From the NCBI GenBank assembly GCA_029856145.1, contig JAHQWK010000004.1:128001-192000 (forward strand): 64,000 bases of DNA, given 5' to 3'. The translations under genes were made by a program, and so were the position numbers. The DNA comes from Promethearchaeia archaeon. Lineage in GTDB: Archaea > Asgardarchaeota > Lokiarchaeia > Sigyniarchaeales > SOKP01. The notes beneath the pieces are model-generated. The model was not told the origin of the DNA and did no database searches. It worked only from the letters and a program-made list of their open reading frames with translations. Shown here in pieces: positions 10,077-27,623 of the stretch; the stretch's first letter is position 1, and every line of letters begins with the position of its first letter.

Positions 10077-10886
10077 CTAATTGAATTTGTTCCAGAAATC
10101 ATTAGAAGGATGGGATATATCCTTTTTATTACGAGTATCATGATAACAAAAATCACAATACTCATCACCTTCCATCAATGTATGGTTTCTGGTGAGAACA
10201 AAATTTGGGTTAAAGTTTTTTGCCCTTTCAAAATCTTGATGACAAATCATTGTATAGCCAATTTCAGGGTCAAAATCTTTTAAATCTTCGGCCCACCTAC
10301 ACTTTTTAATTTTATAAACCAATTTTTCTTTATCAATAATTTCTAGGATAGCTTCCAAATCATGCCATCTCTCCGAAAAATTTTTAAAATTATTAGCAAG
10401 ATCCTGCAAATTCTCTAGATAATTCTTTGGATCTCTTTTTGATTCGGTTAGCTCATTCACAAAATTTTGATAATGGTTAATTGCCTCTTCAACAGATAGG
10501 ATTTTCATCAATGATTCAATAAAATAATATTCAAAATGGTTGAAAGTGTGAATAAGATCAGAAACCTCTATTTCTATCTCCTCATCAATTGATATTTGTT
10601 GGTATTTTGTGAATTGTACTAAGTACAAGATTATATTTATACTTTTATTCATTAACTGAGGATATTCTTGAAATCCCTTTAATTCTAAATTTAATGACAC
10701 GTTGTAATCCTTTATTTTTTCAAAGTGAGAAGTCAAATTGTTAATAACAATTTCCAATAAATCTGGATAATTTTTTGATATATTATCCAAAAAAGCTTCA
10801 AGTCCAGATAAAGACATCTGAATAATATCCTTTATCCTAAACTTGATCTTAGAATTCTTAATACATTTAAATCTCATTTTTGTCAT
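10077..10886 (-). CDS. L-2-amino-thiazoline-4-carboxylate hydrolase-like (V4R-related) protein
   Basis: KCRWAE, ICHQDF, LTRNHTLMEGDEYCDF. Confidence 0.8.
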   Translation of the reverse strand: MTKMRFKCIKNSKIKFRIKDIIQMSLSGLEAFLDNISKNYPDLLEIVINNLTSHFEKIKDYNVSLNLELKGFQEYPQLMNKSINIILYLVQFTKYQQISIDEEIEIEVSDLIHTFNHFEYYFIESLMKILSVEEAINHYQNFVNELTESKRDPKNYLENLQDLANNFKNFSERWHDLEAILEIIDKEKLVYKIKKCRWAEDLKDFDPEIGYTMICHQDFERAKNFNPNFVLTRNHTLMEGDEYCDFCYHDTRNKKDISHPSNDFWNKFN

Positions 10887-10936
10887 ATTCTTTTCTCCAT
10901 TAATATTGATTCTAATAAAAAAATTAAAAAAAAAAA

Positions 10937-11746
10937 TTAGTTTAACTCAAGGAATTCCTTTTCTGAGGGGTGCATTATTTCTTTCTCATGCCGTGTATCG
11001 TGATAACAAAAATCACAATAATCATCCCCCATCATAATTGTTTTTGACCTTGTAAGAATGAAATTTGGATTGAGATTTTTTGCATTCTCAAAATCTGTAT
11101 AACACATTATAGCATAACTAAGTTCAAGATCAAAGTCTTTCATAACTTCTGCCCATCTACATTTCTTAACTTTATATAGAAGTTTCTTATCATTTAAGTT
11201 TTTAAAAACTACATCTTGTGCTTGCCATCTTTCCAAATTACCTTGAAAACGATCAATAAGCGCATCAAAAGTATCAAGATATCTACTTGGATCTTTTCTT
11301 GAATGGACAATATCATCTGCCATTCTTTTTATATACTCAATTGCTTCTTTACGAGACATGATTTTTAATAACATAATCATAAAAGAATATTCAAATTGGT
11401 TGAATGCGCGTATAAGATCTATAACATCAACATCAATTTGATCATAAATAGACTTTTGATTATATTTGCTATAATTTACTAGAGACAAAACATTATTTAT
11501 ACTACCTTTGATTAATTCAGGATACTGATTAAGGATCTCATAATCTGTATCGATTGAAATCCCAAAATCTTCTTTTTTTGCATACTTTGTATTTAAATTT
11601 TCAACTAGGGTAGTTAATGAATCTGGTATGTTCGCTTTTAAATCTTTTAAGAAAGTTTCAAGACCTGTTAAGCAAGCAGTAATAACATCAGCAACTTTAT
11701 AGCTGATTTTTGCATTCTCATCATAGGTATTTCTTATTTGTTCCAT
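10937..11746 (-). CDS. ATC-hydrolase-like protein, tandem paralog
   Basis: KCRWAE, MCYTDF, LTRSKTIMMGDDYCDF. Confidence 0.8.
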   Translation of the reverse strand: MEQIRNTYDENAKISYKVADVITACLTGLETFLKDLKANIPDSLTTLVENLNTKYAKKEDFGISIDTDYEILNQYPELIKGSINNVLSLVNYSKYNQKSIYDQIDVDVIDLIRAFNQFEYSFMIMLLKIMSRKEAIEYIKRMADDIVHSRKDPSRYLDTFDALIDRFQGNLERWQAQDVVFKNLNDKKLLYKVKKCRWAEVMKDFDLELSYAIMCYTDFENAKNLNPNFILTRSKTIMMGDDYCDFCYHDTRHEKEIMHPSEKEFLELN

Positions 11747-11992: not shown

Positions 11993-14503
11993 TTAAGATT
12001 GTCTTTCTAATTCATCAATTTCAGCTAATAGATCTAATTTCTTTTCTTTCCATTCATTTCTCATCTTGATATCACAAAAACAGGTATGGATTGCTCTCTC
12101 TCCTTTTTGTAGACTATCCTTAGCTAAATCAAACTTACCAATTTCTTTATAGCATTTTGCCATCTGAATATATGTATTATAAGTAAACCAACCCAATGGA
12201 TCAAGATCTAATGCCTTTTGAAAGTATTTTAATGCCTCTTCATACTCGCCAAATTCAGTGAGAACTTCACCGTAAGAATCATGATAATTACCATTATCAG
12301 GCGCAAGTTTTACTAATTCCTTTGCTGCTTGCAATGATTCTTCTTTCTCATCACGATAATGATGCCAGTATACTTTATTATTTAATATATCAAAATCCTT
12401 AGGATTTTTTTCCCATAAAACATCAATAATCTCTAAGCCTTTATCATAGTTATTCCTCTTCTTATATAGAAATGCCTTATGCGTCATAAGCTTAGTTTCC
12501 ATTTCTGGAAACGCTTTTATCCCCTCATCGATGGCTGCCAAAGCTTCATCAATCTTCTCATCGCTAGCTAAAATATCATATTTCATAAAGTGTAAATGGA
12601 GATCCTTAGGATCAAGCTCAATAGCAGTTTCAATCATTTCAAAACCCTCTTCATATTTTTCTAATTGTTTTAAAATTAGACCCTTAAAATGATAATACTT
12701 CGCTTTGTTCTTGTCAATATCCTCTAGCGAAATTGCCTTATCGAGATCATGCAACACTTCATCCACTCTCATATCATCCATATCTAATTGGTAAACAATT
12801 TTATAGCCCCAAATTAACGCTCTTGTAACATAGGATAAAGGATGGTCAGAATAATATTCATTTAGTATGTCACTGATTTTAAGTGCCTCATCGAATTCAG
12901 CTAATGTTATATGACAATAAACCTTAATAAAATTATAAGGTACAAAAATTTCCTCATCTTTTCTATTTGGATAGCTCTTTAATGCATTTTTCAAAAATTT
13001 AATAGCCCTTTTATGCCTGTTTGATAAACTTAACACAATTGCTTTCAAGAACAGAAAATCCAAATTATCAGGATTATTTTCAATCTCAGAATTGATCTTA
13101 TCTAAAACATTATCAAAATCCTTTTTTTTCATTAAATGTTTGGCATCATTAAACATCTCCTCAATTTCTGGTGAAGAAAAAAATGGTAGCACCCTTAATA
13201 TTGAATAATCTACATAATACTTGAATTGAGTTTGTTCCGAATCATCAGACTGGGAGCTATTAGATTGAAATACTTCTGGAATATCTCTCCACATTACTCC
13301 TTCTAATTTATCACGGGTATCCTCTAGCTTTCTTTCAGTTTCTATTCTATAAGCTAAATGTTTGATGTATTCCGGTAGAAACTCTCTTAAAGTATCTTTT
13401 AGCTCATCATTAAATAAATTATTACAAATCTCGTCTAAAATCGCATTAACTGTAAAACTGAAATCCATTGAAGCACCTCTACTAAGATTACTTTCATACA
13501 ATTTATTTAAGTAAGTAAATTTTGTAATGTGATCTTCAGTTATTGCTGAAAGAACTTTCTCTATCTTTTCATCCTCCTGGAAATAATAAAATTTATCCTC
13601 ATCAACTTCTATATTAAAAAATTTGGTCGAGTAGATATTTTTCTCTATAATTTGACGAATATTAAATTTCAATTCCAATGAATTAATTTGATATTTCTTA
13701 GAAAAATCAGCAGGTGAAATGTAAAAGGGATACTGATTTGGATGATTCATAGACAGAAACAGTAACACTTTGTTAAAATCTTCCTCTGAATCTAAGGATC
13801 CTCTTAAATTAGCATAAGGTAGTTTCAAAACATTGTTTAAAAATCGAAACTTGATATCCTCATCCTGGATATCATATTTTTCAAAAAATATAATTGTACT
13901 TTTCGTGATTTCCTCGATTCTCTTGCTTTCCTCATTCAATATTGATTGTCGGTCTAAATCATATAACTTCAACATCCGAGAATATTCCGATTTCCCCTTT
14001 TTAGTAATTCTGTATTCCTTATTCTCTTTTCTAATAAATTCCATCTGTTGAAGCTCATTTAGATTTTTCGATAAACTGGATTGATTAATCCTTAGTGGAT
14101 CATCAATAAAATCTGACCATTTGCAAAATGTATTATTATAAACCATCCAAAGGAGCCAATGATCATAATTTCGGTCGTTTGTTATCGCTTTTGGAGGATA
14201 ATTTAAATTTCTTTCTCCGTCCTTAGCTTTTGATAGATGGTTGTATCGTTCCGTACCTTTAGAGGTTATTCTATATACTCCTCTTTCCGGCTTTTCAACA
14301 TATTCGTTCACCTTTAACGAGTTCAGGTAATAGGATAAAGTAGATTGAGGAATACTTACGGGTTCATCTAAGAAATTTGCCCATTCAACAATCTCATTAT
14401 TTTTTAACATCCATAGTATAACATGTTCTATATTTGGTCGCTCAATCCCTATTTGCCGAAAGATTTCTTCAGGTGGATAATTTATTTCTTGAGTTCTACT
14501 CAT
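11993..14503 (-). CDS. Tandem winged-helix plus TPR regulator, paralog 1
   Basis: Two N-terminal YPP...LWM..NN...W..F...QS.LS..L..L...Y.IT.KG repeats; C-terminal TPRs; start set at MSRT by comparison with paralog 2. Confidence 0.85.
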   Translation of the reverse strand: MSRTQEINYPPEEIFRQIGIERPNIEHVILWMLKNNEIVEWANFLDEPVSIPQSTLSYYLNSLKVNEYVEKPERGVYRITSKGTERYNHLSKAKDGERNLNYPPKAITNDRNYDHWLLWMVYNNTFCKWSDFIDDPLRINQSSLSKNLNELQQMEFIRKENKEYRITKKGKSEYSRMLKLYDLDRQSILNEESKRIEEITKSTIIFFEKYDIQDEDIKFRFLNNVLKLPYANLRGSLDSEEDFNKVLLFLSMNHPNQYPFYISPADFSKKYQINSLELKFNIRQIIEKNIYSTKFFNIEVDEDKFYYFQEDEKIEKVLSAITEDHITKFTYLNKLYESNLSRGASMDFSFTVNAILDEICNNLFNDELKDTLREFLPEYIKHLAYRIETERKLEDTRDKLEGVMWRDIPEVFQSNSSQSDDSEQTQFKYYVDYSILRVLPFFSSPEIEEMFNDAKHLMKKKDFDNVLDKINSEIENNPDNLDFLFLKAIVLSLSNRHKRAIKFLKNALKSYPNRKDEEIFVPYNFIKVYCHITLAEFDEALKISDILNEYYSDHPLSYVTRALIWGYKIVYQLDMDDMRVDEVLHDLDKAISLEDIDKNKAKYYHFKGLILKQLEKYEEGFEMIETAIELDPKDLHLHFMKYDILASDEKIDEALAAIDEGIKAFPEMETKLMTHKAFLYKKRNNYDKGLEIIDVLWEKNPKDFDILNNKVYWHHYRDEKEESLQAAKELVKLAPDNGNYHDSYGEVLTEFGEYEEALKYFQKALDLDPLGWFTYNTYIQMAKCYKEIGKFDLAKDSLQKGERAIHTCFCDIKMRNEWKEKKLDLLAEIDELERQS

Positions 14504-14561
14504 AAAATTCACATTATAGTACTCTATTTAATATATAGTAACAACTTCTATTTAAAAGTTT

Positions 14562-14635
14562 CGTGTTCAGTATAAAATTAGAACTCCAACTGAACTTCGA
14601 ATTACAATTGAACTTTCACGAATAAAACTATATAT
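14562..14635 (+). promoter_or_regulatory. Operator boxes plus TATA, site A
   Basis: GAACTCCA-AC-TGAACTTC (14581-14598) and GAATTACA-AT-TGAACTTT (14599-14616), then 11 nt, then CTATATAT (14628-14635). Confidence 0.75.
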
Positions 14636-14701
14636 TGAACTACAAACTTATGAGTATTAAGAAAAAAACAAATAAAAAAAACAAATAAGAGGTAAAAAAT
14701 A

Positions 14702-14779
14702 ATGAAAAAAATCGCAGAAAAAATAATTATAATAAAAAGTGGTACTTCAGCGTATAATCGAACTTATATTAGTTATTAA
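14702..14779 (+). CDS. Micro-peptide 1, 25 aa: MKKIAEKIIIIKSGTSAYNRTYISY
   Basis: GAGGT RBS at 14689-14693, first RBS-preceded ORF after promoter A, followed by a T-tract, homologous to 22685..22768. Confidence 0.75.
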   Translation: MKKIAEKIIIIKSGTSAYNRTYISY

Positions 14780-14872
14780 ATATTAAAAATTTTTTTTTTA
14801 TTTTTATGAAAAATAATCTATTGAACAATTTACGATAATTAACCGTTATTATATGATCACTAAGAGAAAACT

Positions 14873-14931
14873 CTTTTCCATCTCCATATTGAATATGTTT
14901 ATACGAGTTCGGGCGAGACTCTGACTCGCCC
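14873..14931. other. Conserved pyrimidine motif plus GC hairpin, copy 1
   Basis: CTTTTCCATCTCCATATT, then GGGCGAG-actctga-CTCGCCC. Confidence 0.6.
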
Positions 14932-14962
14932 ATAAATTATTACATTAAAAGGTTGAAAAGTT

Positions 14963-15169
14963 ATGGATATAAAAAATACAAGAATGGTTGGAAAACATCA
15001 TTGTCCTGAGTGTAATTGTATGTATATTAGAATTGATAATGAAATTATTTCTTGTCCTGGATGTGAACTATCTTCAAAAGGTAATAGATCGATCATCAAT
15101 GAAGAAGAATGCCAGGAAAGAATTAGTTCAATTTCAGATTTAAACTTCAATAAAAGTTCATGTTCTTAA
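14963..15169 (+). CDS. Small zinc-finger protein
   Basis: CPECNC...CPGC; AGGTTGA RBS. Confidence 0.7.
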   Translation: MDIKNTRMVGKHHCPECNCMYIRIDNEIISCPGCELSSKGNRSIINEEECQERISSISDLNFNKSSCS

Positions 15170-15234
15170 TCTATAAATAAAAAAAGTAATTTAAATATAA
15201 TAAAAAAGAAAATCAATTAAATAGGTAATTACAA

Positions 15235-16548
15235 ATGGAAGTAAAAAGCACAAAAAAATCTTATTGGCACTATATGTATTTCTTGATTGGACAACAATTC
15301 TCAATGTTAGGCTCAATGATAGTTGGTTTTGTAATAACTTGGTGGATGGCCGGTAACGTTATTTTTCTTTCAATTTCAGTGTTTTTAATGTTTCTCCCGC
15401 AAATTATTGTGACTCCACTTTCAGGTGTACTTTCGGATAGATGGAATAAAAAGGCAATAATTGCAATATCAGATTCTGGTCAAGCAGCTGCAACTCTTTT
15501 ACTGTTTGTATTTTTTCTTTTCGACATCCAAAACATCGTTTTTGTTCTCGCAATAAATACATTTAGAGCAGCATTATTTGCATTTCAACTACCAGCTGTT
15601 CAGTCTTTAGTCCCTATTATGATCCCTAAAAAAAGTCTAAGCAGGGTTAATGGAATGAACTTTTTGAGTACTGGAGTTATTTTCACTATGGGACCAATGA
15701 TAGCGGCAGGTCTTATGGCTATTTTTCCACAAACAGAACTGATCTTTCTTCTCGATATTATAACATTCCTGATTGCTATGGTCCCATTGTTAATTATCAA
15801 AATTCCTAAAGTACACCAAACTACAGAAGAAGCCGTAAAAAAGTCAATGTTTAAGGATTTCAAAACGGGACTATTAACAATCAAAATGATTCCGGGATTA
15901 TTTGCTATGATTGCTTTCGCAATGGTATGGAATTTTATTAACAGACCTTGGGCTGTTTTGCTACCTAATTTTATTTATGATACTCACGGAGGTACTGCCT
16001 TAAATCTTGCGTTATTAATGACTGTGAGTCAAGTTGGGAACATAATAGGATCTCTAATCACCTCACTTAAGAAAACGTGGAAGCATAAAATTAAAATAAA
16101 CATAATTGGAGGAGCAATATTTTTTGTATGTCAAATCCCCGCGATTCTTGCACCTCAAGGAAATTTCATTATTATGATGATATCTCTATTTCCTGCATGG
16201 GTGATTTTTCCAATTACAGTATCTACGTATTTAGCAATATTACAGACGGTTGTTTCGAAAGATAAAATTGGTAGAATTATGTCGATTGATCACATGATAT
16301 CTATGGCAATTGCTCCAATTGGAGCACTTATATCCGGGCCATTAGCATTATTAATAGGAATAAGATATTTATTTCTAATCGCTGCAATCCTTGGAGTAAT
16401 TCATCCGTTTATCATTTGGGGTTTCACGAAAATAAGACAACTTGAAGTTATAGAAAGAGAAATAGTAATGAAAGCAGATGAAGTTGCCGAAGTAGAAGAA
16501 ATCACAGAGCTTACTGAAGTTATTCAAGTTATTGAACCAATAGAATAA
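15235..16548 (+). CDS. MFS exporter (MefA/DHA3-like)
   Basis: GQQFSMLGS, GVLSDRWNKK motif A, about 12 TM helices. Confidence 0.9.
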   Translation: MEVKSTKKSYWHYMYFLIGQQFSMLGSMIVGFVITWWMAGNVIFLSISVFLMFLPQIIVTPLSGVLSDRWNKKAIIAISDSGQAAATLLLFVFFLFDIQNIVFVLAINTFRAALFAFQLPAVQSLVPIMIPKKSLSRVNGMNFLSTGVIFTMGPMIAAGLMAIFPQTELIFLLDIITFLIAMVPLLIIKIPKVHQTTEEAVKKSMFKDFKTGLLTIKMIPGLFAMIAFAMVWNFINRPWAVLLPNFIYDTHGGTALNLALLMTVSQVGNIIGSLITSLKKTWKHKIKINIIGGAIFFVCQIPAILAPQGNFIIMMISLFPAWVIFPITVSTYLAILQTVVSKDKIGRIMSIDHMISMAIAPIGALISGPLALLIGIRYLFLIAAILGVIHPFIIWGFTKIRQLEVIEREIVMKADEVAEVEEITELTEVIQVIEPIE

Positions 16549-16612
16549 TTTTTTTTTATTTTAATTTTTCATTTTTATTCTTTTTATTAGTATTTTTCAA
16601 TCTTCAATCTCT

Positions 16613-16668
16613 CCAGTTCATAATAAAGTATGAACTTCATATGAAGTCCGAATCAATAGTCTATATAT
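16613..16668 (+). promoter_or_regulatory. Operator box plus TATA, site B
   Basis: GAACTTCA-TA-TGAAGTCC (16632-16649), 11 nt, CTATATAT (16661-16668). Confidence 0.8.
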
Positions 16669-16801
16669 GAATTGAAAATCTAATAAGAATAAAGAATTTT
16701 AGGTTCAAAATTCGAATCATGTAGGAATAGGCTCCTACACTGAAGAAATGTAGCCTGTCATATTCCAATATTATTAATATCAATTAAAAGAGTGGTTTAA
16801 A

Positions 16802-17746
16802 TTGTCTGAAAAATCAGAAATCGAAAAAATATTAAAAGAACGCTCTAAATTTGAAGGTCTGGAAACATCAAATTCCGAATTTGTATTTATTGATAAAGTT
16901 GTTCAAGATTATGCACCAGAAATTGCTTTTTTATATCAATTTAGGGAGGACGAATCAGAAGAACAACAGATAAAAACAGGACGCCTTCATGAAAATCGCA
17001 TCTTAGGCATAATTCTAAAATTCTATTTAGAAGGAAAGAATAAGATCACTACTGGAGAAGTAGAACAGGAATATAAAAGATATTTTAGGGAAATTGCTCG
17101 ATCAACTACTTCAACATATTTAAATATGTTAAAGAAAGAATCTACTCTCTATACAGAAAGAGATGGTAGAGTAGCTTATTATATCTTTTATGAAGATCCT
17201 CCCGTTGATATTAAACCTTTTTGGTTTACTAGAATCTTTTGTATAGTTCCAGCTTACTTTAATAGAGCAATGAAATTTTCTAGTTTATACTTTAACGCTG
17301 AGAAATTTATCCAACAGTATATCAATGATATGGGTTATGGAGATAAAGAAATTTTAATAAGAAATTTCAAATTTATTATCGGTTTAATTGTATTAAATAT
17401 TTTGAAGAATCGAAGCTCTAAATGTATTGGTTGTCAGTTTAGTAAGAGGGAAATTTATAAGAAACTGGAAGAATTGATTAATGTAGCTATTAAAGATAGG
17501 TCTGATGTTTTACCAGGAGAATTATCGGTAGATTTGATTGAAAAGCATTCAGAAATACCAATATTTAAAGGAACTAATATTAAAGAAGATGAATTTAAAG
17601 GAAATATTATTAAGGAGATAGTAAGGAGCGCTGATATATTCAAAAAAGATTTAGATTTTCAAATTATGGTATCATCTCGAAGAAAAGATTCAAGATTAAA
17701 GCAAATACAAGCTTTAGAAGAAGACAGTGCAAAATTATCTTATTAA
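16802..17746 (+). CDS. Putative winged-helix DNA-binding protein
   Basis: ITTGEVEQEY...IARSTTSTYLNMLKKE..L...RDGRVAYY. Confidence 0.65.
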   Translation: MSEKSEIEKILKERSKFEGLETSNSEFVFIDKVVQDYAPEIAFLYQFREDESEEQQIKTGRLHENRILGIILKFYLEGKNKITTGEVEQEYKRYFREIARSTTSTYLNMLKKESTLYTERDGRVAYYIFYEDPPVDIKPFWFTRIFCIVPAYFNRAMKFSSLYFNAEKFIQQYINDMGYGDKEILIRNFKFIIGLIVLNILKNRSSKCIGCQFSKREIYKKLEELINVAIKDRSDVLPGELSVDLIEKHSEIPIFKGTNIKEDEFKGNIIKEIVRSADIFKKDLDFQIMVSSRRKDSRLKQIQALEEDSAKLSY

Positions 17747-17840
17747 TTTTATTTAACACTTTTTTTTAATATCTTAAGTAGTGAAATTTTTCGCACTATA
17801 ATCACCTTTAAATAAGATATTCAATTTTATAAAATTAGAA

Positions 17841-17865
17841 AGTTGTGAAAAAAAAACTCACAACT
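17841..17865. promoter_or_regulatory. Perfect inverted repeat AGTTGTGA-N9-TCACAACT upstream of thioredoxin
   Basis: Directly visible; a related TAGTG...CACTA at 17779-17798. Confidence 0.55.
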
Positions 17866-17894
17866 TAGAAAAAACAATTAAATGTGTATTTTAA

Positions 17895-18311
17895 ATGCAG
17901 AATGTAGATGATAACCTAGAAATGTTGAGAATAAAAAAAGCCGAAGCTTTATTAAAACACCAAAAAATGCCAGAAACTATAGTAGAGATACAGTCTTCAG
18001 AAGAATTTCATAAATTATTAAAGAATTACACTGACAAAACTATTATTATAGATTGTTGGGCTGTTTGGTGCGGACCTTGCATGTTTTTTGCTCCCATTTT
18101 TAAGAAACTTCATGGAGAATTTCAAAAAGATTTCGTATTTGTAAAGGTAAACGTTGATGAAAATAATGCCATAGCAAGGGAGTATGGGATAACTGGAATC
18201 CCAACGACTTTATTTATTAAAAATAAAGAAGTTATAAATCAAGTTGTTGGAGCAATGAATTATGAAGGTATGAAGCAGGTATTAATAAAATTAAAACAAT
18301 CAGATAGTTAA
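17895..18311 (+). CDS. trxA: Thioredoxin
   Basis: WCGPC active site, KVNVDE, GIPT. Confidence 0.95.
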   Translation: MQNVDDNLEMLRIKKAEALLKHQKMPETIVEIQSSEEFHKLLKNYTDKTIIIDCWAVWCGPCMFFAPIFKKLHGEFQKDFVFVKVNVDENNAIAREYGITGIPTTLFIKNKEVINQVVGAMNYEGMKQVLIKLKQSDS

Positions 18312-18362
18312 ATAAATACCCCTTTTTATTAATTTCTTTTTAAATTTTTAAGTTGATAACTA

Positions 18363-18827
18363 ATGGAAGTAATTGGAAACCAATTAAAAGAATTTGAAAT
18401 TATAGATGAGATATTAGAAAATAAAGATATTTTTTCTAGTACACGATTATTTAAATGTATTTTAGGCCTAAATAAAACCGAATCACAGGTATTTGGATAT
18501 ATTTTAAGAAATAAAGATGTAAGTACTTCTGAAATAGCAAAAGCTCTGAAGTTGGATAGAAGTTCAATTCAAAGAGCTGTTCAAGATTTATCTGAATTAA
18601 TACTTATTAATCGTAAGTCTATATCTATGAAAGAATATTCTAAGGTGAAAGGTAAGACTAATATCAAAAGGCAAGGATATCTTTATGTTTATAATGCTAA
18701 AGATATTAAGTCAATAAAAACCCAGTTTAAAGAACTATTAGATAAATGGTACGGTTCAATGTTAAAATACATTGAGAATCTCGAGAATCTATGTGAATGT
18801 TGTGGTTTCAAATTCGAACCATGTTAA
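18363..18827 (+). CDS. HTH regulator (TrmB/MarR-like) with Cys-rich C-terminus
   Basis: FKCILGL, EIAKALKLDRSSIQRAV, GYLYVY, terminal CECC....C. Confidence 0.8.
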   Translation: MEVIGNQLKEFEIIDEILENKDIFSSTRLFKCILGLNKTESQVFGYILRNKDVSTSEIAKALKLDRSSIQRAVQDLSELILINRKSISMKEYSKVKGKTNIKRQGYLYVYNAKDIKSIKTQFKELLDKWYGSMLKYIENLENLCECCGFKFEPC

Positions 18828-18858
18828 ATTTTTTAATAGGCTTAAGAAAAAAAGTTTT

Positions 18859-19521
18859 TTAGAACATAAAAATTACCTTGAAAGGGAGATCTTCCAATAA
18901 TTCTCTTAGTTCTTTTTTAAATTCTTCCGAAATGGGTTCAAAACCATCTAGAGTATAATTACTTACCGAATAATGATCTGGCATAACATCTAATAAGAAC
19001 TCCTTTAATTTTTCCACATTTATAACGGTATCATTTAACCCTTTCAAAAACATTGTGTAGATGCCCAACTTCCCCTTAAATTTTTTACTGAATTTCAAAA
19101 TGCCCTCTAAAACATTTTTAGGTTCTATCGATTCCGGACACTTATTAATTTTTGAAAAATGAAAGTGATCAACAGTATTAAGATTAATAGCAACCAAATC
19201 ACATCCGTTAAATACATTTCGAGCTTCCTTATCTTGAAAGATTCCACAATTTAAATAAATACCAATTTTTTGATTTGGATATATCGTCCTAATCATTTTT
19301 GTAATCAACTTAAAATTTGAATGGGTTATTGAATCTGTTATTCCCTTAAACCATATTAAACTGGGAATCCCTCGAACATTAATACAATCTCTAATTTCAT
19401 AAAAAACTTCTTCAGTAAGGTTAATTAGGCCTGAGCCTTCACAGTAAGAACTAAAATCAACTGATAAAAGTGTTCCAAAATTAAAATTAAACTCGAACGC
19501 TTTTACAAACCTGTAACCCAT
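18859..19521 (-). CDS. Radical-SAM-fold protein lacking CxxxCxxC
   Basis: 'DLVAINLNTVD...FSKINK', 'TMFLKGLND' resemble radical-SAM barrel motifs. Confidence 0.55.
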   Translation of the reverse strand: MGYRFVKAFEFNFNFGTLLSVDFSSYCEGSGLINLTEEVFYEIRDCINVRGIPSLIWFKGITDSITHSNFKLITKMIRTIYPNQKIGIYLNCGIFQDKEARNVFNGCDLVAINLNTVDHFHFSKINKCPESIEPKNVLEGILKFSKKFKGKLGIYTMFLKGLNDTVINVEKLKEFLLDVMPDHYSVSNYTLDGFEPISEEFKKELRELLEDLPFKVIFMF

Positions 19522-19547
19522 TTAAACCACATTTTTTATTTGCATTA

Positions 19548-22505
19548 TTAATTATTTTTTAATTCGTCTATCAATACCTTGATTTCAGAAATCAATATCT
19601 CCGCTTTTCGTAGATAATCCTCTCTTTCACTCGGATGCATCTTTTCTGTAAATTTTTTCCCTTTTTCATAATACTCGAGTGCGTTTTCAAATTTACCAAG
19701 TTCTTTAAAACATCTTCCCATTTTTAAGCATGTCTCGAATGCAAACCAACCAGTAGGTTCAAGATTCAAAGCTTCTTTTAATTTTTCAATAGCATCTTCG
19801 TACTCTCCTAAGGACATTAATATTTCACCATATGTATCATAAACGTTTCCATAATTTGGATTAAGACTTATCAGATATTCTGCAGTCTCAATAGCTTCCT
19901 TTCTTCTCCCTAAATACCCTAATATTATGGCTTTATTGTTAATAATATTAGTATCTTGTGGGTTTAATTCAAGGGCTTTATCAACAGCTTCTAAACCTTC
20001 ATCATACTGTTTTAGATGTACATAGATAAACGATTTTTGTAAGAGAAGACTTCTTTTCAAGGAGGGGTGGCTTTCTAACAAGTCATCAATCAAATTCAAA
20101 GCTTCAGATTCTCTCTTGGACATAATCAAATTGTATGTTTTCCTAGCATATAAAGAATTCAATCCGGGAACCAATTCAATAGCCTTATCAATAGATTCAA
20201 TAGCTTCATCATGTTTTCCAAGTCCATTAAAAACGTATGCTTGAAATAAAAGATATCTTGTTTTATCATATGTAAAAGGGTCAAAAGAGATTGTAAGTTT
20301 TATTAATTCAGTAAAAGTATCAATATTTGGTTCTTTTAATGTAAATCTATAAATCAAATTATAACCAAGTACAATGGCTTTTGTGATAAATGAAATTGGA
20401 TGATCAGGATAAAGAGTTAAAACTAGATTTGCAATTTCTAAAGCTTTTTCAAATTTCCCTCTTGCTAAATATGAGTATGCTAAAATAAAATAAGCTTCTG
20501 TATCAATTCCAGGATTCTTTTTAAGGGTATTTATATCGATTTCACTTGTTATCAGTTGCTTCGCCTCTTTATATTTATAAATCTCACAATAGTAGAGACT
20601 TCTCAAAAGTAGAATTTCTTTATCGTTTGGTTTCAAGGCGATTAATTGATTTATAACATCTAAGGGATCATTATAATCCTTTACCAATGTCATCCAATGA
20701 GTAATATAAATTATGAATTTTGTTTTTAATAGAAGAGTATTATCTGGATATTGAGATAATGACTCGTTAATAAGATGGAGTGCTTTTTCTCCTTGAAACA
20801 TTCTCAACAATATTTGAGCTTTATGACTAATTAAAACAACATTAGATGATTTCTTTAGTCCTTTTTCAACATTTTCTAAAGATCTCTCATAATTGTCCAT
20901 TAAAAAGTAAGTTAATGATTGCAATAAATATCCAATATACTCCTCTGGATATTTCTCAATAATTTCATTAGTTATATCAATTGAATCATCTAATTTATTA
21001 TTCGCTGTTGTTATAATATCTTTTATAATTAACTGATTAATGGTTTTTAACTTTGTGCTATTATTCTGATATAGTTCCCTCGCTTTAGAAGCTTTATTTC
21101 TGTATAATGTTTTTACAATTTTTTTAAATAGATCTATTTTATTCAGATAATAAGTCTCCTGAACTTCTTTTGAGTTCACAAAATACAATTTTGTTAGGTG
21201 CATAATACTTAGTACGCTAAAAATACTACCATCTAAGGTATAATGATACTCATCCTCATCTCCTGCTATTGGTTTTGAAGGTTCAAAAGTTTGGAATTCC
21301 TCAAAAATATTTTGCCAAACAAATCCTTCTAATTTTGCTTCGCTATCAACTAATTTTTTCTCAGTCTCAAATTTATATGCTAAATATTTAATATATTCAG
21401 GTAAAAATGATTTTAATGAGGGCTTCAGATGTTCATGGAATAATTTATCACAAATACCATCTAAAATTTCATCTAATAACAATCCTACATCTATCGTCAG
21501 GGCTTCATGAAATTTGTTTAGATATGTAAATTTAATGATATGTTTTTCCACAATCGCATTAAGAACTTTCTCAATTGTCTCATTCTTTTGAAAATAATAA
21601 ATCCCTCCTTGTTCATCTTCTACTTTAAAAAACTTAATATCAAAAAATTCATTATCTACAATCTCTCCTATATAATAATCTAACGTAGTTTTGTCAACTT
21701 TATACTTTAATGAGAATTCTTGAGGTGAAATGAATTCGGGATAATTATCTGGATGATTAATCGAAAGGAACAACAAAATTTTATTAAAGATTTCCTCGTT
21801 TTTTAACATTGGCTCTACTTTAGAATAAGAAAACTTTAAAATATGATCAAGATATCGAAATTTCAATTCATCATCTTCAATTTTATATTTCTTGAAAAAC
21901 ATTCTAGTTTTTTCTGTTATTTCTTCAATTCTCTTACTTTCTTGTTCTAATATAGATTGACGATCCAAATCGTAAGACTTTAATATTCTTAAATACTCAT
22001 TCTTTCCCAAGGGTGTTATTATATATTCCTTGTTTTCTCTTGCTACGAATCCATCATCTATTAATGAATTTAAATTGTTAGATAAGGAGGATTGATTAAT
22101 CGATAGTGGCTCTTGTTTAAAATCTGACCATTTGCATGAATAATTATTATAAAGCATCCACAAAATCCAATGATCATAATTCCTAATTTTAGTTATTGTT
22201 TTTGGTGGATACTTTAATCTCCTCTTTCCTAATTTCTTGTCATAGACTAATTCACTAAATCTATCTCTCCCTTGTGCTGTAATTAGATACTTGCCTTTTT
22301 CAGGTTTTTCAATATAATCCTTATTCATTAGTTTATTCAAATTACCTGATAATGTTGAAGGACTTATTTCTACCTCAAAATCCGACCACTCACAAATATC
22401 ATTATTACTGAGCATCCATAGTATTACATATTCAAAATCAGTTTTTCCCATTATTGGATTTAATATCTCTCCTGGAGGATATATGATTCCTTCTGATCTA
22501 CTCAT
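19548..22505 (-). CDS. Tandem winged-helix plus TPR regulator, paralog 2
   Basis: Collinear with 11993..14503 (RNYDHW.LWM.YNN..CKWSDF, YDLDRQSIL..ESKRIEEIT, P.GWF); longer TPR region. Confidence 0.85.
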   Translation of the reverse strand: MSRSEGIIYPPGEILNPIMGKTDFEYVILWMLSNNDICEWSDFEVEISPSTLSGNLNKLMNKDYIEKPEKGKYLITAQGRDRFSELVYDKKLGKRRLKYPPKTITKIRNYDHWILWMLYNNYSCKWSDFKQEPLSINQSSLSNNLNSLIDDGFVARENKEYIITPLGKNEYLRILKSYDLDRQSILEQESKRIEEITEKTRMFFKKYKIEDDELKFRYLDHILKFSYSKVEPMLKNEEIFNKILLFLSINHPDNYPEFISPQEFSLKYKVDKTTLDYYIGEIVDNEFFDIKFFKVEDEQGGIYYFQKNETIEKVLNAIVEKHIIKFTYLNKFHEALTIDVGLLLDEILDGICDKLFHEHLKPSLKSFLPEYIKYLAYKFETEKKLVDSEAKLEGFVWQNIFEEFQTFEPSKPIAGDEDEYHYTLDGSIFSVLSIMHLTKLYFVNSKEVQETYYLNKIDLFKKIVKTLYRNKASKARELYQNNSTKLKTINQLIIKDIITTANNKLDDSIDITNEIIEKYPEEYIGYLLQSLTYFLMDNYERSLENVEKGLKKSSNVVLISHKAQILLRMFQGEKALHLINESLSQYPDNTLLLKTKFIIYITHWMTLVKDYNDPLDVINQLIALKPNDKEILLLRSLYYCEIYKYKEAKQLITSEIDINTLKKNPGIDTEAYFILAYSYLARGKFEKALEIANLVLTLYPDHPISFITKAIVLGYNLIYRFTLKEPNIDTFTELIKLTISFDPFTYDKTRYLLFQAYVFNGLGKHDEAIESIDKAIELVPGLNSLYARKTYNLIMSKRESEALNLIDDLLESHPSLKRSLLLQKSFIYVHLKQYDEGLEAVDKALELNPQDTNIINNKAIILGYLGRRKEAIETAEYLISLNPNYGNVYDTYGEILMSLGEYEDAIEKLKEALNLEPTGWFAFETCLKMGRCFKELGKFENALEYYEKGKKFTEKMHPSEREDYLRKAEILISEIKVLIDELKNN

Positions 22506-22573
22506 AATAAAACTCAGTCTTATAAGATCTTATTTTGTTACATATATATTAGTTCATCTGCTTTTTAAGCTTT

Positions 22574-22629
22574 TCACTTCAGACTAAAGTGTGAACTTCA
22601 TGTGAAGTTCGAAGTGCGAATCTATATAT
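22574..22629 (+). promoter_or_regulatory. Operator box plus TATA, site C
   Basis: Perfect GAACTTCA-TG-TGAAGTTC (22593-22610), 11 nt, CTATATAT (22622-22629). Confidence 0.85.
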
Positions 22630-22684
22630 TGGAGTTCAAGTTAAATAATCATAAGAAAAAAATGAAAAAAAAGTGATAAAAAAG

Positions 22685-22768
22685 ATGGTTCAAGTATTAG
22701 AAAAGAAGTCGAGGTTGATAATTATAACGAATGATACGGACAGATATCATTCGAGATATATAACTTAG
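22685..22768 (+). CDS. Micro-peptide 2, 27 aa: MVQVLEKKSRLIIITNDTDRYHSRYIT
   Basis: AGTGA RBS, first RBS-preceded ORF after promoter C, T-tract after the stop, homologous to peptide 1. Confidence 0.75.
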   Translation: MVQVLEKKSRLIIITNDTDRYHSRYIT

Positions 22769-22814
22769 TAAAACTTTTTTTTTCCTATTTATATCAAAAT
22801 GGAGAGTGAAAAAT

Positions 22815-22955
22815 ATGGTTAAAATAATGATAAATTGTAGAAAATGTGGTAAAGAGATAAAACTTGACCTGAACGACTCGACGGCGCTTTGCCGAAAGTG
22901 TCGGAAGAATCATGCTGTAATTGAGGTAACAACAACGAGGAATTTTGATTTTTAA
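22815..22955 (+). CDS. Micro zinc-finger protein, 46 aa
   Basis: MVKIMINCRKCGKEIKLDLNDSTALCRKCRKNHAVIEVTTTRNFDF; GGAGAGTGA RBS. Confidence 0.8.
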   Translation: MVKIMINCRKCGKEIKLDLNDSTALCRKCRKNHAVIEVTTTRNFDF

Positions 22956-23017
22956 TGAAAATAATAGAGAATAATAAAAAATTAAATAGAAAATGAAAAA
23001 ATAAAAGAGGGACAAAT

Positions 23018-23116
23018 ATGCCAAAAAAAATAAGGATACCCTGTATGAAATGTGGTAAAGAGATAAAGTTAAATTTTACCGAATCACGGGCAATTTGTAA
23101 GGATTGTGGAAGGTAA
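23018..23116 (+). CDS. Micro zinc-finger protein, 32 aa, paralog of 22815..22955
   Basis: MPKKIRIPCMKCGKEIKLNFTESRAICKDCGR; GAGGGA RBS. Confidence 0.8.
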   Translation: MPKKIRIPCMKCGKEIKLNFTESRAICKDCGR

Positions 23117-23196
23117 ATTTCGAGAGATTTTTTAAATCTTTCAAATTTTTTAATTGTTTAATTATTTAATTTTTTAATTTTTTTTACGGTTCTTTT

Positions 23197-23245
23197 CTTT
23201 TCCATTCCAAATTAAGGGGCGAGAGTTTATCTCACCCTTTAATTT
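23197..23245. other. Conserved pyrimidine motif plus GC hairpin, copy 2
   Basis: CTTTTCCATTCC, then AAATTAAGGGGCGAG-agtttat-CTCACCCTTTAATTT. Confidence 0.6.
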
Positions 23246-23975: not shown

Positions 23976-25757
23976 ATGAGATATAATAATGATCATAAAT
24001 TTTTGAATTCTGCAATATGCATTGCTGTTATTCTAAATATCATTGTTTTTGGGATTTTTAGTTCTGATTTATTTATATATAGATACTCTCGTCCTTATGA
24101 TTGGAGGGTGGAAGTTCTTAAAGTACCAACAACGTCCAATCCTGTTACCATGGATCCTTGCGATTCATGGGATAGTGTATCAAATGATATACTTGATCAG
24201 GTAATAGAAACCCTAATTGCATATAATTTATCTGACCCAGAATTTCCACTTGTAGGAAGACTTGCCTCAGCTTGGGATTTCCAAAGCTCAAAATTTGGGC
24301 ATAATATAACTTTCACACTAAGACCAAATGTATATTTCCATGATGATTCATTACTTACTGGAGACGATGTTTTACATTCTTTCGCAAGAATTAATTACTT
24401 CGGTAATGCAACTGGTACCTTAACAGAGCCTGATCATATGGCTTTTCCACACTCTCTCTATAAATTTCCTGGTAAGCCTCCAGGTTTAACACCAATCTTC
24501 AATCATACCTTAAGCTTTGTTAATCCAACTGATAACTTAGAAGTTACTATTGTAATGAATGGTCCATTTGCTCCTGCTGAAGGATTATTAGCCTATGTAG
24601 CAAGTGGAATTGTACCTCTTAATTGTCCTGCAGAGGATATGTGGGAACTCGGTACGGATCTAGCCATTGGAACTGGTCCATTCAAATTAGTTAGTTATGT
24701 ACCAAATTCAGAGACTAGATTTGAGCGTTGGGATAGATATTGGGATGCTCCCGCTTATTGGGATGAAATTGTCTATGTCTATTATAGAGATGCTGTCACC
24801 GCTAATAATGCTATGTTGGCTGGAGATATTGACTACTTAGGCCAGGGTATTGCTGCACTAAAAGAATACTTTAATGCGAGTCCTTATATCACGGTAACTG
24901 GAGATGGAGTTGCTGATTTTATCAATGGTTCTATCTATTGGTATATTGCTTTTAACTCCCCTTATATAAATGTTACGTGGAGAAAAGCTATTTCATCTGC
25001 CTTTAACTATACATATCTTAACGAAGAAATAGATGAAGGCACTACTGTGAAAGCTAATTCCTTAGTTCCTCCCGGTTTTCCTGCTCATAATGCTTCATGT
25101 AAAGGTGGTGTTTTTAATATACCTTATGCTAGACTAAAAATGCAGAGCATGGGGCATGGTGTAGGATGGGACATTGGCAGTCAGGTTGGAGATATATTTA
25201 CTCCTGGTCTTGATGAAGCTCTATGGAAAGCAGCCGCATGGGTTCCAGATGTAGGTAACTTTACTGCAAATCAGTTTAATTTCCGGTTTAGACAAGGAAG
25301 TCATTGGATGGAACTCCTAATTGCTCAATTTCGAGATGATATGGACAGGATTGGAATTGAAATTAACGTGCAAATATTGACTTGGTGTGAATTCATAGAA
25401 ATGGGTGAAGGCTATCCTGACAGACTCCATATCTATCAAGTAGGTTGGGGTCCTGCTTACTTTGAAACCTTCACCATGATTGATCCATTAGTAAATCCCG
25501 CATCTTCATCAAACTTTGCTCGAATTGATAATCCTGAAATAAACACTTACTTAGCCCTTGCTGCTTCTGAAACCGATACTGCTACGAGATATGGATACTA
25601 TATGAAACTTCAGTATTTAATTATGGATAAATACTCTTACCATATGGGCATACAATTTGATAAGCTTTATCATGTTCATGCTGCTAATTTGAAAGGCGTC
25701 CCATATAATACTATGAGGAACTTATACTGGTATCCAACTTATCGCGAAACCGCATAA
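23976..25757 (+). CDS. ABC transporter family-5 (OppA/DppA-like) substrate-binding protein
   Basis: TMDP, LASAW, FTLRPNVYFHDD, IGTGPF, RKAISSAFN. Confidence 0.9.
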   Translation: MRYNNDHKFLNSAICIAVILNIIVFGIFSSDLFIYRYSRPYDWRVEVLKVPTTSNPVTMDPCDSWDSVSNDILDQVIETLIAYNLSDPEFPLVGRLASAWDFQSSKFGHNITFTLRPNVYFHDDSLLTGDDVLHSFARINYFGNATGTLTEPDHMAFPHSLYKFPGKPPGLTPIFNHTLSFVNPTDNLEVTIVMNGPFAPAEGLLAYVASGIVPLNCPAEDMWELGTDLAIGTGPFKLVSYVPNSETRFERWDRYWDAPAYWDEIVYVYYRDAVTANNAMLAGDIDYLGQGIAALKEYFNASPYITVTGDGVADFINGSIYWYIAFNSPYINVTWRKAISSAFNYTYLNEEIDEGTTVKANSLVPPGFPAHNASCKGGVFNIPYARLKMQSMGHGVGWDIGSQVGDIFTPGLDEALWKAAAWVPDVGNFTANQFNFRFRQGSHWMELLIAQFRDDMDRIGIEINVQILTWCEFIEMGEGYPDRLHIYQVGWGPAYFETFTMIDPLVNPASSSNFARIDNPEINTYLALAASETDTATRYGYYMKLQYLIMDKYSYHMGIQFDKLYHVHAANLKGVPYNTMRNLYWYPTYRETA

Positions 25758-25808: not shown

Positions 25809-27623
25809 ATGAAATCTGAAATGAAAGAGTTAGCGATATTTATTTTAATAATTTTAATTATTTTTTCTGGTTTCGGAAACGTTATCATGTTACTGATGTA
25901 TAGTCCTCCGCATTCTCATCCTACTTTCGAAGTACTTAAAGTAGCAAGAACTTCAAATCCAGTTACTATGGATCCATGTGATTCTTGGGATAGTGTGTCA
26001 AATGATATGCTTGATCAGGTAATGGAAACCCTCATTGCTTATAATTTATCTGACCCAGAATTTCCGCTTGTAGGAAGACTTGCCTCAGCTTGGGACTTCC
26101 AAAGCACGCCTTTAGGCACGAATATCACATTCCAATTACGACCAAATGTATATTTCCATGATGATACATTACTTACTGGAGAATGTGTTATCCATACCTT
26201 TACAAGAATAAATTTTTTTGGCAATTGGACAGGGACATTAACTGCTCCTCATCATATGGCAGCTCCACACTCTCTTTATAAATTTGCTAATGGAACACCA
26301 ATCTTTAATGAAACGCTCAGTTTTGTTAATCTAACTAACCCATTAGAAGTTACTCTTGTATTAAATGGTCCATTTGCTCCTGCTGAAGGATTACTAGCCT
26401 ATACAGCAAGTTCAATCGTACATCCTTATTCTACTCCTGTAAATGAGATGTTAGAACTCGGCGAGGATCGAGCCATAGGGACTGGTCCATTCAGATTAGT
26501 TTATTATGTACCAAATTCAGCGATTTGGTTTGATCGTTGGAAGAGATATTGGGATGGTCCCGCATATTGGGATGAAATCGTCTATGTCTACTATAGAGAT
26601 GCTGTCACCGCTAATAATGCTATGCTGCGTGGAGATATTGACTACTTAGGTCAGGGTATTGCTGCACTAAAAGAATACTTTAATGCGAGTCCTTATATCA
26701 CGGTAACTGGAGATGGAGTTCATGATTACATCAACGGGGCTACTTATAACTGTATTGTATTTAAATCAGAATGGATCAATCGTACATGGAGAAAGGCGAT
26801 TTGTCATGCTTATAACTATTCCTATCTTATCCATAATATCATGGAAGACACAGTTGTGAGAGCTAATTCTTTAGTCCCTCCAGGTATCCCGGGTCATAAC
26901 AGTTCAGTTGTAGGTGGTACGTTCAATATTACAAAAGCAAGACAGATTATGCAGAGCATGGGTTATGGTTATACGGATAATGTTCCTTGGGACGTAGGAT
27001 CTCAGGTTGGAGATGTGTTCACCCCTGGTGCTAATGAAACTCTATGGAAAGCAGCAGAATTTATACCAAACGTAGGAAACTTCTCTGGTAATGTATGGAA
27101 TTTCTATGTAAAACCAGGAAGCCTTTTATTGGAATTTCTAACTCAACGCTTTATAGAGGATATGGATTTAATTGGAATTAAGGTAGAATATTATTGGTAC
27201 TGGTGGGCTGAATGGCCGATACCACTATGGTGGTGGAAAGGAATCCATTTATGTTGGTTGAGTAAATATCCTAATTATTATGAAGCTTTTAATATGATTG
27301 ATTCATTAGTCAACCCAGATTCTACCCTTTATTCCGAAACTTTAAATATACTTGATTCAATAGTCGACCCAGCATCTACCCTCAATATCCTTAAAATTAA
27401 CAATACAGAAATAAATACTCTTTTAGCTACTACTGTAGCTGAAACTAGTACTGCTACAAGATATGAATACTATAAGAAACTTCAATATTTAATTCATGAT
27501 AAGTACTACTACCATATGCCTCTGTTTTATGACAAGCTCTACTATGTTCATGCTGCCACCTTGAAAGGATTTCCATATAATTGTATGAGGAATTTATACT
27601 GGTATCCAACTTATCGTGATTAA
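25809..27623 (+). CDS. Family-5 substrate-binding protein, tandem paralog
   Basis: Same motifs; long near-identical DNA blocks shared with the upstream gene. Confidence 0.9.
   Translation: MKSEMKELAIFILIILIIFSGFGNVIMLLMYSPPHSHPTFEVLKVARTSNPVTMDPCDSWDSVSNDMLDQVMETLIAYNLSDPEFPLVGRLASAWDFQSTPLGTNITFQLRPNVYFHDDTLLTGECVIHTFTRINFFGNWTGTLTAPHHMAAPHSLYKFANGTPIFNETLSFVNLTNPLEVTLVLNGPFAPAEGLLAYTASSIVHPYSTPVNEMLELGEDRAIGTGPFRLVYYVPNSAIWFDRWKRYWDGPAYWDEIVYVYYRDAVTANNAMLRGDIDYLGQGIAALKEYFNASPYITVTGDGVHDYINGATYNCIVFKSEWINRTWRKAICHAYNYSYLIHNIMEDTVVRANSLVPPGIPGHNSSVVGGTFNITKARQIMQSMGYGYTDNVPWDVGSQVGDVFTPGANETLWKAAEFIPNVGNFSGNVWNFYVKPGSLLLEFLTQRFIEDMDLIGIKVEYYWYWWAEWPIPLWWWKGIHLCWLSKYPNYYEAFNMIDSLVNPDSTLYSETLNILDSIVDPASTLNILKINNTEINTLLATTVAETSTATRYEYYKKLQYLIHDKYYYHMPLFYDKLYYVHAATLKGFPYNCMRNLYWYPTYRD

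Follow-up and report, generated by a model that had tools for sequence, protein, structure and literature searches.

A lineage-expanded family of winged-helix and TPR regulators with divergently encoded microproteins in Promethearchaeota

Regulator architecture and distribution

The window analysed here is a 64,000-nt stretch of a Promethearchaeia archaeon genome (assembly GCA_029856145.1, contig JAHQWK010000004.1, positions 128,001 to 192,000), in which two genes for large regulators, R1 and R2, each lie divergent from a promoter followed by genes for a short peptide (peptides 1 and 2) and zinc-finger microproteins (Table 1). Both regulators are members of a lineage-expanded archaeal transcription factor family, which may act by activating, among other genes, exchangeable arrays of cytoplasmic microproteins. 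This reading is weighed below against peptide signalling of the RRNPP type, which the original prediction, made from the letters of the DNA alone, had proposed.

That the window encodes two paralogous proteins with tandem winged helix-turn-helix (wHTH) domains and tetratricopeptide repeats (TPRs) was borne out by the open reading frames (ORFs), by Pfam, which placed wHTH matches N-terminally and TPR matches C-terminally in both proteins, and by an identity of 37% between R1 and R2 over 806 aa (53% within the N-terminal 410 aa). The description as a duplicated regulator holds for the paralogy but not for a sister pair, as R1 and R2 are old paralogs in the regulator tree; the 3.55 Mb genome encodes seven complete family members plus a fragment. 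In R1, MarR/PadR-type winged helices at residues ~21–96 and 104–183 are followed by a conserved middle region, which includes a third wHTH-like unit (residues ~264–309), and by a C-terminal TPR array. In the AlphaFold2 model (pLDDT 84), the two winged helices and a helical middle with the third wHTH-like unit precede roughly ten TPRs. Winged helices of the regulators matched MarR/PadR/BldR folds in VIA (Z~10), and the best Foldseek matches of the TPRs were long generic TPR proteins (TTC7B, OGT, APC); no RRNPP structure was among the top 50 Foldseek matches, which does not by itself rule out family membership. For the middle domain (~220 aa), no usable Atlas feature match was obtained, and the best match by shape was a Promethearchaeota cluster.

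Of 36 Promethearchaeota genomes from the same genus, 34 contained regulators of this family, with 2–10 matches each; outside the genus (24 genomes searched), one strong match (genome G038) and four weak matches were obtained. A search of 1.8 billion proteins yielded 220 relatives, of which the distant ones carry a single wHTH. Named relatives came mostly from metagenome-assembled genomes of Promethearchaeota (Loki-type Asgard). For the analysis of flanking regions, 222 distinct regulators were collected, and the 184 whose flanks reached 1.4 kb or more (flank lengths 1.4–3.5 kb) were used for micro-ORF and neighbour counts; essentially one genus supplies all loci, and these are non-independent. 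Regulator clusters 9 and 10 (e.g., L203, L207, L242) comprise ~640-aa paralogs without micro-ORFs, many of them opposite a gene for a conserved ~130-aa membrane protein or for secreted proteins.

Divergent microprotein genes

Recurring small-ORF families, designated A, B, C, D, E, and F, were identified in the divergent flanks in addition to zinc fingers. Family A comprises proteins of 70–90 aa, and family B, to which both window peptides belong, peptides of 22–30 aa with a basic N-terminus and an IIIxN core. At least one micro-ORF was present at 114 of the 184 regulators and at least two at 66, while 70 had none in the flank; some sister loci do without A and others without B. The hidden Markov models behind these counts were built from the same flanks that they count, and the independent check is provided by genome-wide searches. 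Therein, family A was found in 31 of the 36 same-genus genomes and in G038, mirroring the regulator distribution, and not in the other 23 genomes searched, and B of the window subtype was found only within the genus. The expectation that homologous regulators elsewhere would have conserved micro-ORFs beside them was thus supported across the genus.

Across orthologs of peptide 2 (n = 16), the ratio of nonsynonymous to synonymous changes (pN/pS) was 0.28 in frame, without internal stops, compared to 0.79–1.32 in four of five control frames and 0.52, with three stops per sequence, in the codon-mirroring antisense frame. For the 32-aa zinc-finger microprotein, pN/pS was 0.25 across 19 relatives. 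As the sequence sets were chosen by amino-acid pattern, they are biased toward conservation and the ratios are somewhat flattered. These patterns support the micro-ORFs as probably coding. C-termini are aromatic in 71% of A and 51% of B, against a background of 11%. No recurring Pfam family was detected for A; an assignment of A to IF3_N was rejected (Atlas scores of 0.80 or less, i.e., chance level). Homology between A and B was not detectable with hhalign (probability 0.3%). Family C (L216:1746-1829, L202:1807-1890, L090:4611-4700) carries a T-L-x-D-F/Y motif, which we take to resemble an archaeal PCNA-interacting (PIP) box minus the Gln.

In the window, the first ORF preceded by a ribosome-binding site (RBS) is indeed a tiny peptide at both loci, as predicted, but this is a derived state and not the general layout: the first recognised ORF in 201 flanks was family A at 87 and a B-type peptide at 15, and in orthologs of both loci, A takes the leading position with B behind it. 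Locus 1 has lost A (82–84 aa in orthologs) through a clean deletion. In locus 2, the first ~7 codons of A were joined to the C-terminal ~20 of B when the sequence between two runs of Lys codons was deleted in frame, and the terminal Tyr codon of peptide 2 became a stop; of the 16 orthologs, the 15 others retain Tyr, including the closest relative (L107), which has the fusion in common with peptide 2. The peptides hence lead their operons because the usually first gene, of 70–85 aa, was deleted, and it is therefore by an accident in this lineage that a single leading peptide gives the loci an Rgg/SHP-like look.

Operator-like sites and promoters

Common to the promoters, and absent from the original prediction, is the palindrome GAACT-N7-AAGT, which lies upstream of a TATA-like box at a distance of about 10 bp. 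A combined operator and TATA model derived from 122 promoters detected 16 genome sites above 20 bits compared to 0 in shuffled sequences, and four of the 16 are inside the window. Sites without an adjacent regulator precede genes for AOR-like, flavodoxin-like, and flavin-reductase-like proteins (labels taken from sequence motifs), another major facilitator superfamily (MFS) transporter, and secreted proteins. In archaea, sites upstream of the transcription factor B recognition element (BRE) and TATA box mark activation (PMC4158304). Judging from domain type, site position, and clade-specific site variants, the regulator would bind the palindromic operator-like site.

Orphan cassettes of operator plus peptide were found in G000 (C15:21820) and L251, and in L253 an A gene is located 70 kb from the nearest regulator. 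The cassette at C15:21820 (minus strand) consists of operator, TATA, and a 23-aa B-type peptide on a contig without a regulator; its promoter is nearly identical to that of the regulator at C23:103012, and a small GTPase gene follows 2.4 kb downstream. A candidate orphan B gene at G005:1819939 adjoins an assembly gap and was left uncounted. Two further flanks in G000 were recorded. At C26:61612 (minus strand), the same promoter type precedes ORFs of 93 aa and 57 aa plus an ORF of the IIIR type (19 aa), behind which a protein of 110 aa is encoded that is ubiquitin-like by eye. The divergent flank at C23:98830 has no peptide ORF; in its place, a leader rich in purines, which contains a strong hairpin and a T-run, precedes a small GTPase gene; similar leaders are found in L208, L212, L232, and L196, and may represent a cis-regulatory RNA.

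Gene content of the two loci

Table 1. Coordinates of genes and elements at the two regulator loci (positions within the window)
Feature	Position	Strand	Basis
Two PF14196 (ATC_hydrolase) genes, co-oriented after R1	10077..11746	-	Pfam
R1 regulator, 836 aa	11993..14503	-	Pfam, AlphaFold2, VIA
GAACT repeats, operator-like, upstream of divergent TATA	14581..14617	.	Model, 33.4 bits
BRE/TATA-like element, locus 1 divergent promoter	14626..14635	+	Position conserved in relatives
Peptide 1, family B, 25 aa; RBS AGAGGT at 14688-14693	14702..14779	+	ORF, orthologs
T10 tract behind peptide 1, possibly an archaeal terminator	14790..14799	+	Sequence
TTTTCCA-pyrimidine motif plus 7-bp GC hairpin (14911-14931)	14874..14931	+	Folding, relatives
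68-aa CxxC..CxxC zinc-finger microprotein, kept in R1 orthologs	14963..15169	+	Flank comparison
Second operator plus TATA-like site, directly before MFS gene	15142..15178	+	Model, 23.6 bits
MFS transporter, Mef(A)/H+-antiporter-like	15235..16548	+	Pfam
Third operator plus TATA-like site, before 314-aa gene	16632..16668	+	Model, 39.0 bits
314-aa probable wHTH protein, weak Pfam hit	16802..17746	+	Pfam
Radical-SAM-fold protein without CxxxCxxC, co-oriented just after R2	18859..19521	-	Homologs
R2 regulator, 985 aa; architecture as R1, extra TPRs	19548..22505	-	Pfam, alignment to R1
Perfect palindrome GAACTTC-N4-GAAGTTC, operator-like	22593..22610	.	46.7 bits, best site of the genome
BRE/TATA-like element, locus 2 divergent promoter	22620..22629	+	Relatives, model
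Peptide 2, 27 aa (31 aa from GTG 22673)	22685..22768	+	ORF, orthologs
T9 tract behind peptide 2	22775..22783	+	Sequence
46-aa zinc-finger microprotein	22815..22955	+	ORF, relatives
32-aa zinc-finger microprotein, paralog of the 46-aa one (repeat D2)	23018..23116	+	pN/pS
Second motif-plus-hairpin copy (hairpin 23214-23239)	23198..23239	+	Folding, relatives
Two SBP_bac_5 genes	23976-25757, 25809-27623	+	Pfam

Peptides 1 and 2 are homologous in frame at the DNA level. The zinc-finger genes and shared hairpin described as following them are present, but their order differs, as the hairpin precedes the zinc finger at locus 1 and comes after the zinc fingers at locus 2. Hairpin folding was stronger than in 200 of 200 shuffles at both sites (z −3.7 at locus 1, −6.1 at locus 2). 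These are the only two positions of the hairpin in the genome; it recurs in 13 related sequences, with a compensatory exchange of C-G and U-A at one pair, and the motif-plus-hairpin element is restricted to some R1- and R2-type arrays. Searches against Rfam returned chance hits only, with no family at E ≤ 1 over the element.

Regarding the transporters, locus 1 does include the MFS gene into which it had been said to continue, but this gene carries its own operator plus TATA-like site; MFS genes were linked to 7 of 20 R1-cluster loci and 11 of the 184 loci overall. Likewise, both genes for oligopeptide-binding (substrate-binding, SBP) proteins are present beyond locus 2, but a 177-aa membrane protein gene stands between; SBP_bac_5 genes occur at 2 of 42 R2-cluster loci, this window being one, and are not a conserved component of the module. 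Homologs of the 314-aa wHTH-like protein are encoded by the first divergent gene at nine other regulator loci. Downstream of the MFS gene (16802-18827), the 314-aa gene is followed by genes for a thioredoxin and an Lrs14/Sta1-like regulator, and the order of MFS, 314-aa gene, and thioredoxin recurs in L248.

Companion genes were found behind the regulators. The protein with a radical S-adenosylmethionine (SAM) fold after R2, absent from the original prediction, is 18 aa shorter than intact homologs and 33% identical to an intact copy. Of 170 loci, 46 have such a gene behind the regulator, in most cases no more than 70 nt away among those with a fully called start. Six of the 46 linked copies retain an intact CxxxCxxC triad, which is deleted in 40, including the window copy, in frame and with the ORF kept; by its sequence, the Cys-less protein is a conserved pseudoenzyme. 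At 9 R1-cluster loci, the first gene downstream belongs to the PF14196 family. Convergent small GTPase genes follow other regulators at 27 loci, and small GTPases flank 69 of the 184 loci. Within a clade, the companions are at least as constant as the peptides. In ten regulators of one subclade (e.g., in G000 C32 downstream of the 37162 regulator, L100, L200, L204, and L211), the gene that follows encodes a protein of ~300 aa with an N-terminus that is longin-like by eye.

Tests of RRNPP-type signalling

RRNPP receptors are characterized by five (or nine) homologous TPRs as a core, no more than one HTH directly N-terminal to it, and an adjacent small ORF encoding either a propeptide exported via Sec or PptAB or an ultrasmall, hydrophobic leaderless peptide; the cognate peptide co-evolves with the TPRs and switches DNA binding, following an extracellular stage and re-import by the oligopeptide permease Opp (PMC12700828, PMC10518010). 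Leaderless signals, which exist in Firmicutes, are mostly 8–10 aa long and highly hydrophobic (PMC10518010). An adjacent, conserved small ORF is present in the regulator family (see the micro-ORF counts and the pN/pS of B above). The DNA-binding part departs from the RRNPP layout, with two tandem MarR/PadR-like winged helices and the middle domain in place of a single HTH. The B peptides correspond to neither kind of RRNPP peptide: no signal h-region was detected in any of them, the median uncharged run was 4 residues compared to 9–23 in secreted proteins of the same genome, and median best 11-residue hydropathy (0.76), net charge (+4), and median length (25 aa) describe short basic peptides. 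SBP genes were present at 3 and MFS genes at 11 of the 184 loci, which together with the missing h-region speaks against export followed by Opp re-import, although Opp need not be linked.

Pairing of one cognate peptide with each receptor was not upheld either, given the loci with two or more micro-ORFs, those with none, and the orphan cassettes. The similarity of peptides followed regulator identity with a rho of 0.25 for the TPRs, which is not above that for the wHTHs (0.23) or the middle domain (0.31), short peptides making this a noisy test; the partial rho of peptide–TPR co-variation was 0.11–0.15. Discordant pairs were found in both directions, with peptides 61–73% identical beside TPRs 32–34% identical and dissimilar peptides beside TPRs 63–72% identical. 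Three peptide subtypes, assigned by motif, each occur in two to three distant regulator clades and require two to three changes on the regulator tree, and tests constraining each to one clade were rejected (approximately unbiased test, p-AU ≤ 4e-7). R1 nests among regulators with a different peptide subtype. Both cassette exchange and differential loss from mixed arrays would explain this scatter, and neither yields fixed pairs. The proposal of two channels of different specificity is not supported, as both peptides are of one subtype even though the TPRs are only ~32–37% identical. Conservation of the TPR residues K641, K710, D742, and E746 was equal with or without an adjacent micro-ORF. Complex prediction for the TPR region of an R2 ortholog (L037, residues 400–986) with its 32-aa B peptide gave a score of 0.01, which is evidence neither way.

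The regulator family is not an RRNPP member, as tests of its domain architecture, of the character of the propeptides, and of one-to-one pairing all showed a difference. What stands of the RRNPP-like reading are the conserved divergent micro-ORFs and an operator layout that fits feedback; transport, one-to-one pairing, and co-evolution are not supported.

Interpretation

The reading preferred here, to which an even chance is given, is that the R1/R2 family consists of activators whose regulons include exchangeable arrays of cytoplasmic microproteins. The targets would be exchangeable cargo, often polycistronic arrays of microproteins (A, B, C–F, zinc fingers), elsewhere small GTPases, membrane or secreted proteins, efflux or redox genes, or another regulator. 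As outputs, the microproteins would act in the cell on a putative shared target, probably via a conserved hydrophobic strand and the aromatic C-terminus, and the TPRs would receive something besides a private neighbouring peptide. The best candidates for this input, suggested by linkage, are the radical-SAM-fold pseudoenzyme (R2), the PF14196 protein (R1), and small GTPases (other clades). In favour of this reading, the operator also precedes ordinary genes without a neighbouring regulator, and three distant homologs that were looked up lie opposite ordinary genes. The loci with no or several micro-ORFs, the orphan cassettes, the loss of A or B in sister loci, the scatter of peptide subtypes, the discordant pairs, the TPR residues conserved regardless of a micro-ORF, and the lack of an h-region were counted toward it as well. 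Several observations pull the other way. Most micro-ORFs adjoin regulators, and the distribution of family A equals that of the regulator, which fits ligands equally well. The aromatic C-termini would fit a TPR pocket. In all four clades tested, peptide-linked TPRs diverge somewhat faster relative to the N-terminal half (ratios, peptide-linked versus not, of 2.26/1.90, 2.15/1.72, 1.65/1.50, and 1.64/1.30, from non-independent pairs). Lastly, the 314-aa wHTH protein might be the reader of some operators.

Most of these observations lend weight to feedback inside the cell, in which B and/or A would bind the TPR groove as co-activators or anti-activators with loose or cross-reactive specificity over the 3–10 paralogs per genome, i.e., RRNPP-like working minus the extracellular leg. 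This is considered unlikely, albeit the main competitor: besides the tight linkage, the matching distribution, the conserved aromatic C-terminus, and the slightly faster TPR divergence, the peptide genes are under the regulator's presumed operator, peptide subtypes cluster at shallow tree depth, and orphan receptors occur in RRNPP families as well. It is weakened by co-variation that is low and not specific to the TPRs, by several unrelated microprotein families per locus, and by peptide-less regulators keeping the same conserved TPR residues. Full cell–cell signalling, with export by the MFS transporter, maturation, re-import by oligopeptide-binding proteins, and cognate TPR sensing, is improbable. 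The divergent layout and the MFS and SBP genes of the window suggest it, an oligoendopeptidase-F-like gene (by sequence motif) is located beside other paralogs, and leaderless signals have precedents in Firmicutes (PMC10518010), but the rarity of linked transporters, the absence of an h-region together with a net charge of about +4, in contrast to the short, highly hydrophobic leaderless peptides, the lack of one-to-one pairing, and the recent fusion that produced peptide 2 all oppose it.

Two further explanations were weighed. As precursors of peptides made on ribosomes and modified after translation (RiPPs), micro-ORF products would be modified by the adjacent radical SAM protein and exported by the Mef-like MFS transporter; radical-SAM RiPP clusters under Rgg control are the model. 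The radical SAM genes behind regulators, six of them with an intact triad, the multiple short ORFs, and the MFS genes at R1-type loci would accord with this, yet the peptides are under purifying selection while the Fe-S triad is deleted in most copies, the intact protein is a bare core of 238 aa, and such an enzyme is absent from most peptide-bearing clades. This origin is as improbable as cell–cell signalling. Slightly less credible still is B as a leader peptide, inert in itself, whose translation (Ile run, T-tract, downstream hairpin) would govern read-through into the genes that follow. It is favoured by the T-tracts, which come immediately behind the stop codon of each peptide, by the conserved hairpin downstream, and by a Mef-like MFS gene at locus 1; on the other hand, B is usually the second or a later ORF, amino-acid conservation reaches the C-terminus while Ile codons vary freely, and the MFS gene has a promoter-like site of its own.

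Even cautiously read, the data describe a regulator family with a defined operator-like site and at least six conserved gene families of 22–90 aa that annotation missed, in archaea close to eukaryotic origins. Testable reagents follow, namely synthetic versions of the short peptides, the operator of 18 bp, and the pseudoenzyme as a candidate partner. Should the peptides bind the TPRs, the result would be an archaeal peptide–receptor feedback system convergent with RRNPP. More broadly, and tentatively, being less likely than not, Asgard archaea may have independently evolved a multi-channel peptide–receptor network, in which regulator-induced microproteins bind the TPR domains of the paralogous wHTH-TPR family and thereby act back on regulons with small GTPases among their members; such binding would take place inside the cell or, less likely, after export.

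Comparison with known systems

No description of the regulator–microprotein feature was found in the literature searched. The HTH of RRNPP regulators is of the XRE type. RRNPP(A) systems, especially Rgg/SHP and RopB/SIP, resemble the family in combining an N-terminal DNA-binding domain with a TPR array (PMC12700828, PMC10518010), as well as in a short divergent ORF under the regulator's presumed control and many paralogs per genome. The family differs from them in having two winged helices of the MarR/PadR type plus a middle domain of ~220 aa where they have a single HTH (630–1000 aa in total), in arrays of several basic microproteins without signal region instead of one propeptide, in lacking conserved export or import genes and one-to-one co-variation, and in its archaeal host.

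The archaeal activators Ptr2, TFB-RF1, and TrmBL1/Tgr are small regulators, none of which, to our knowledge, has a TPR array or is associated with microprotein arrays. In common with these activators, which bind upstream of BRE (PMC4158304), the family has a wHTH domain and a palindrome just upstream of BRE/TATA (122 promoters; 16 sites versus 0). Compared to radical-SAM RiPP clusters, an intact CxxxCxxC enzyme is missing from the window and from most linked copies. The TPR-sensor regulators MalT and AfsR (STAND) likewise join a winged helix, a helical arm, and a TPR sensor in one long chain, whereas no nucleoside triphosphatase (NTPase) domain was detected by Pfam in the regulators described here. 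Finally, the one-domain zinc-finger micro-proteins of Haloferax volcanii are similar in having fewer than 70 aa, two CxxC motifs, and genes missed by annotation (PMC6562870, PMC10716476); compared to these, the zinc fingers of the present loci share their clusters with microproteins that lack Cys, under a single regulator family.

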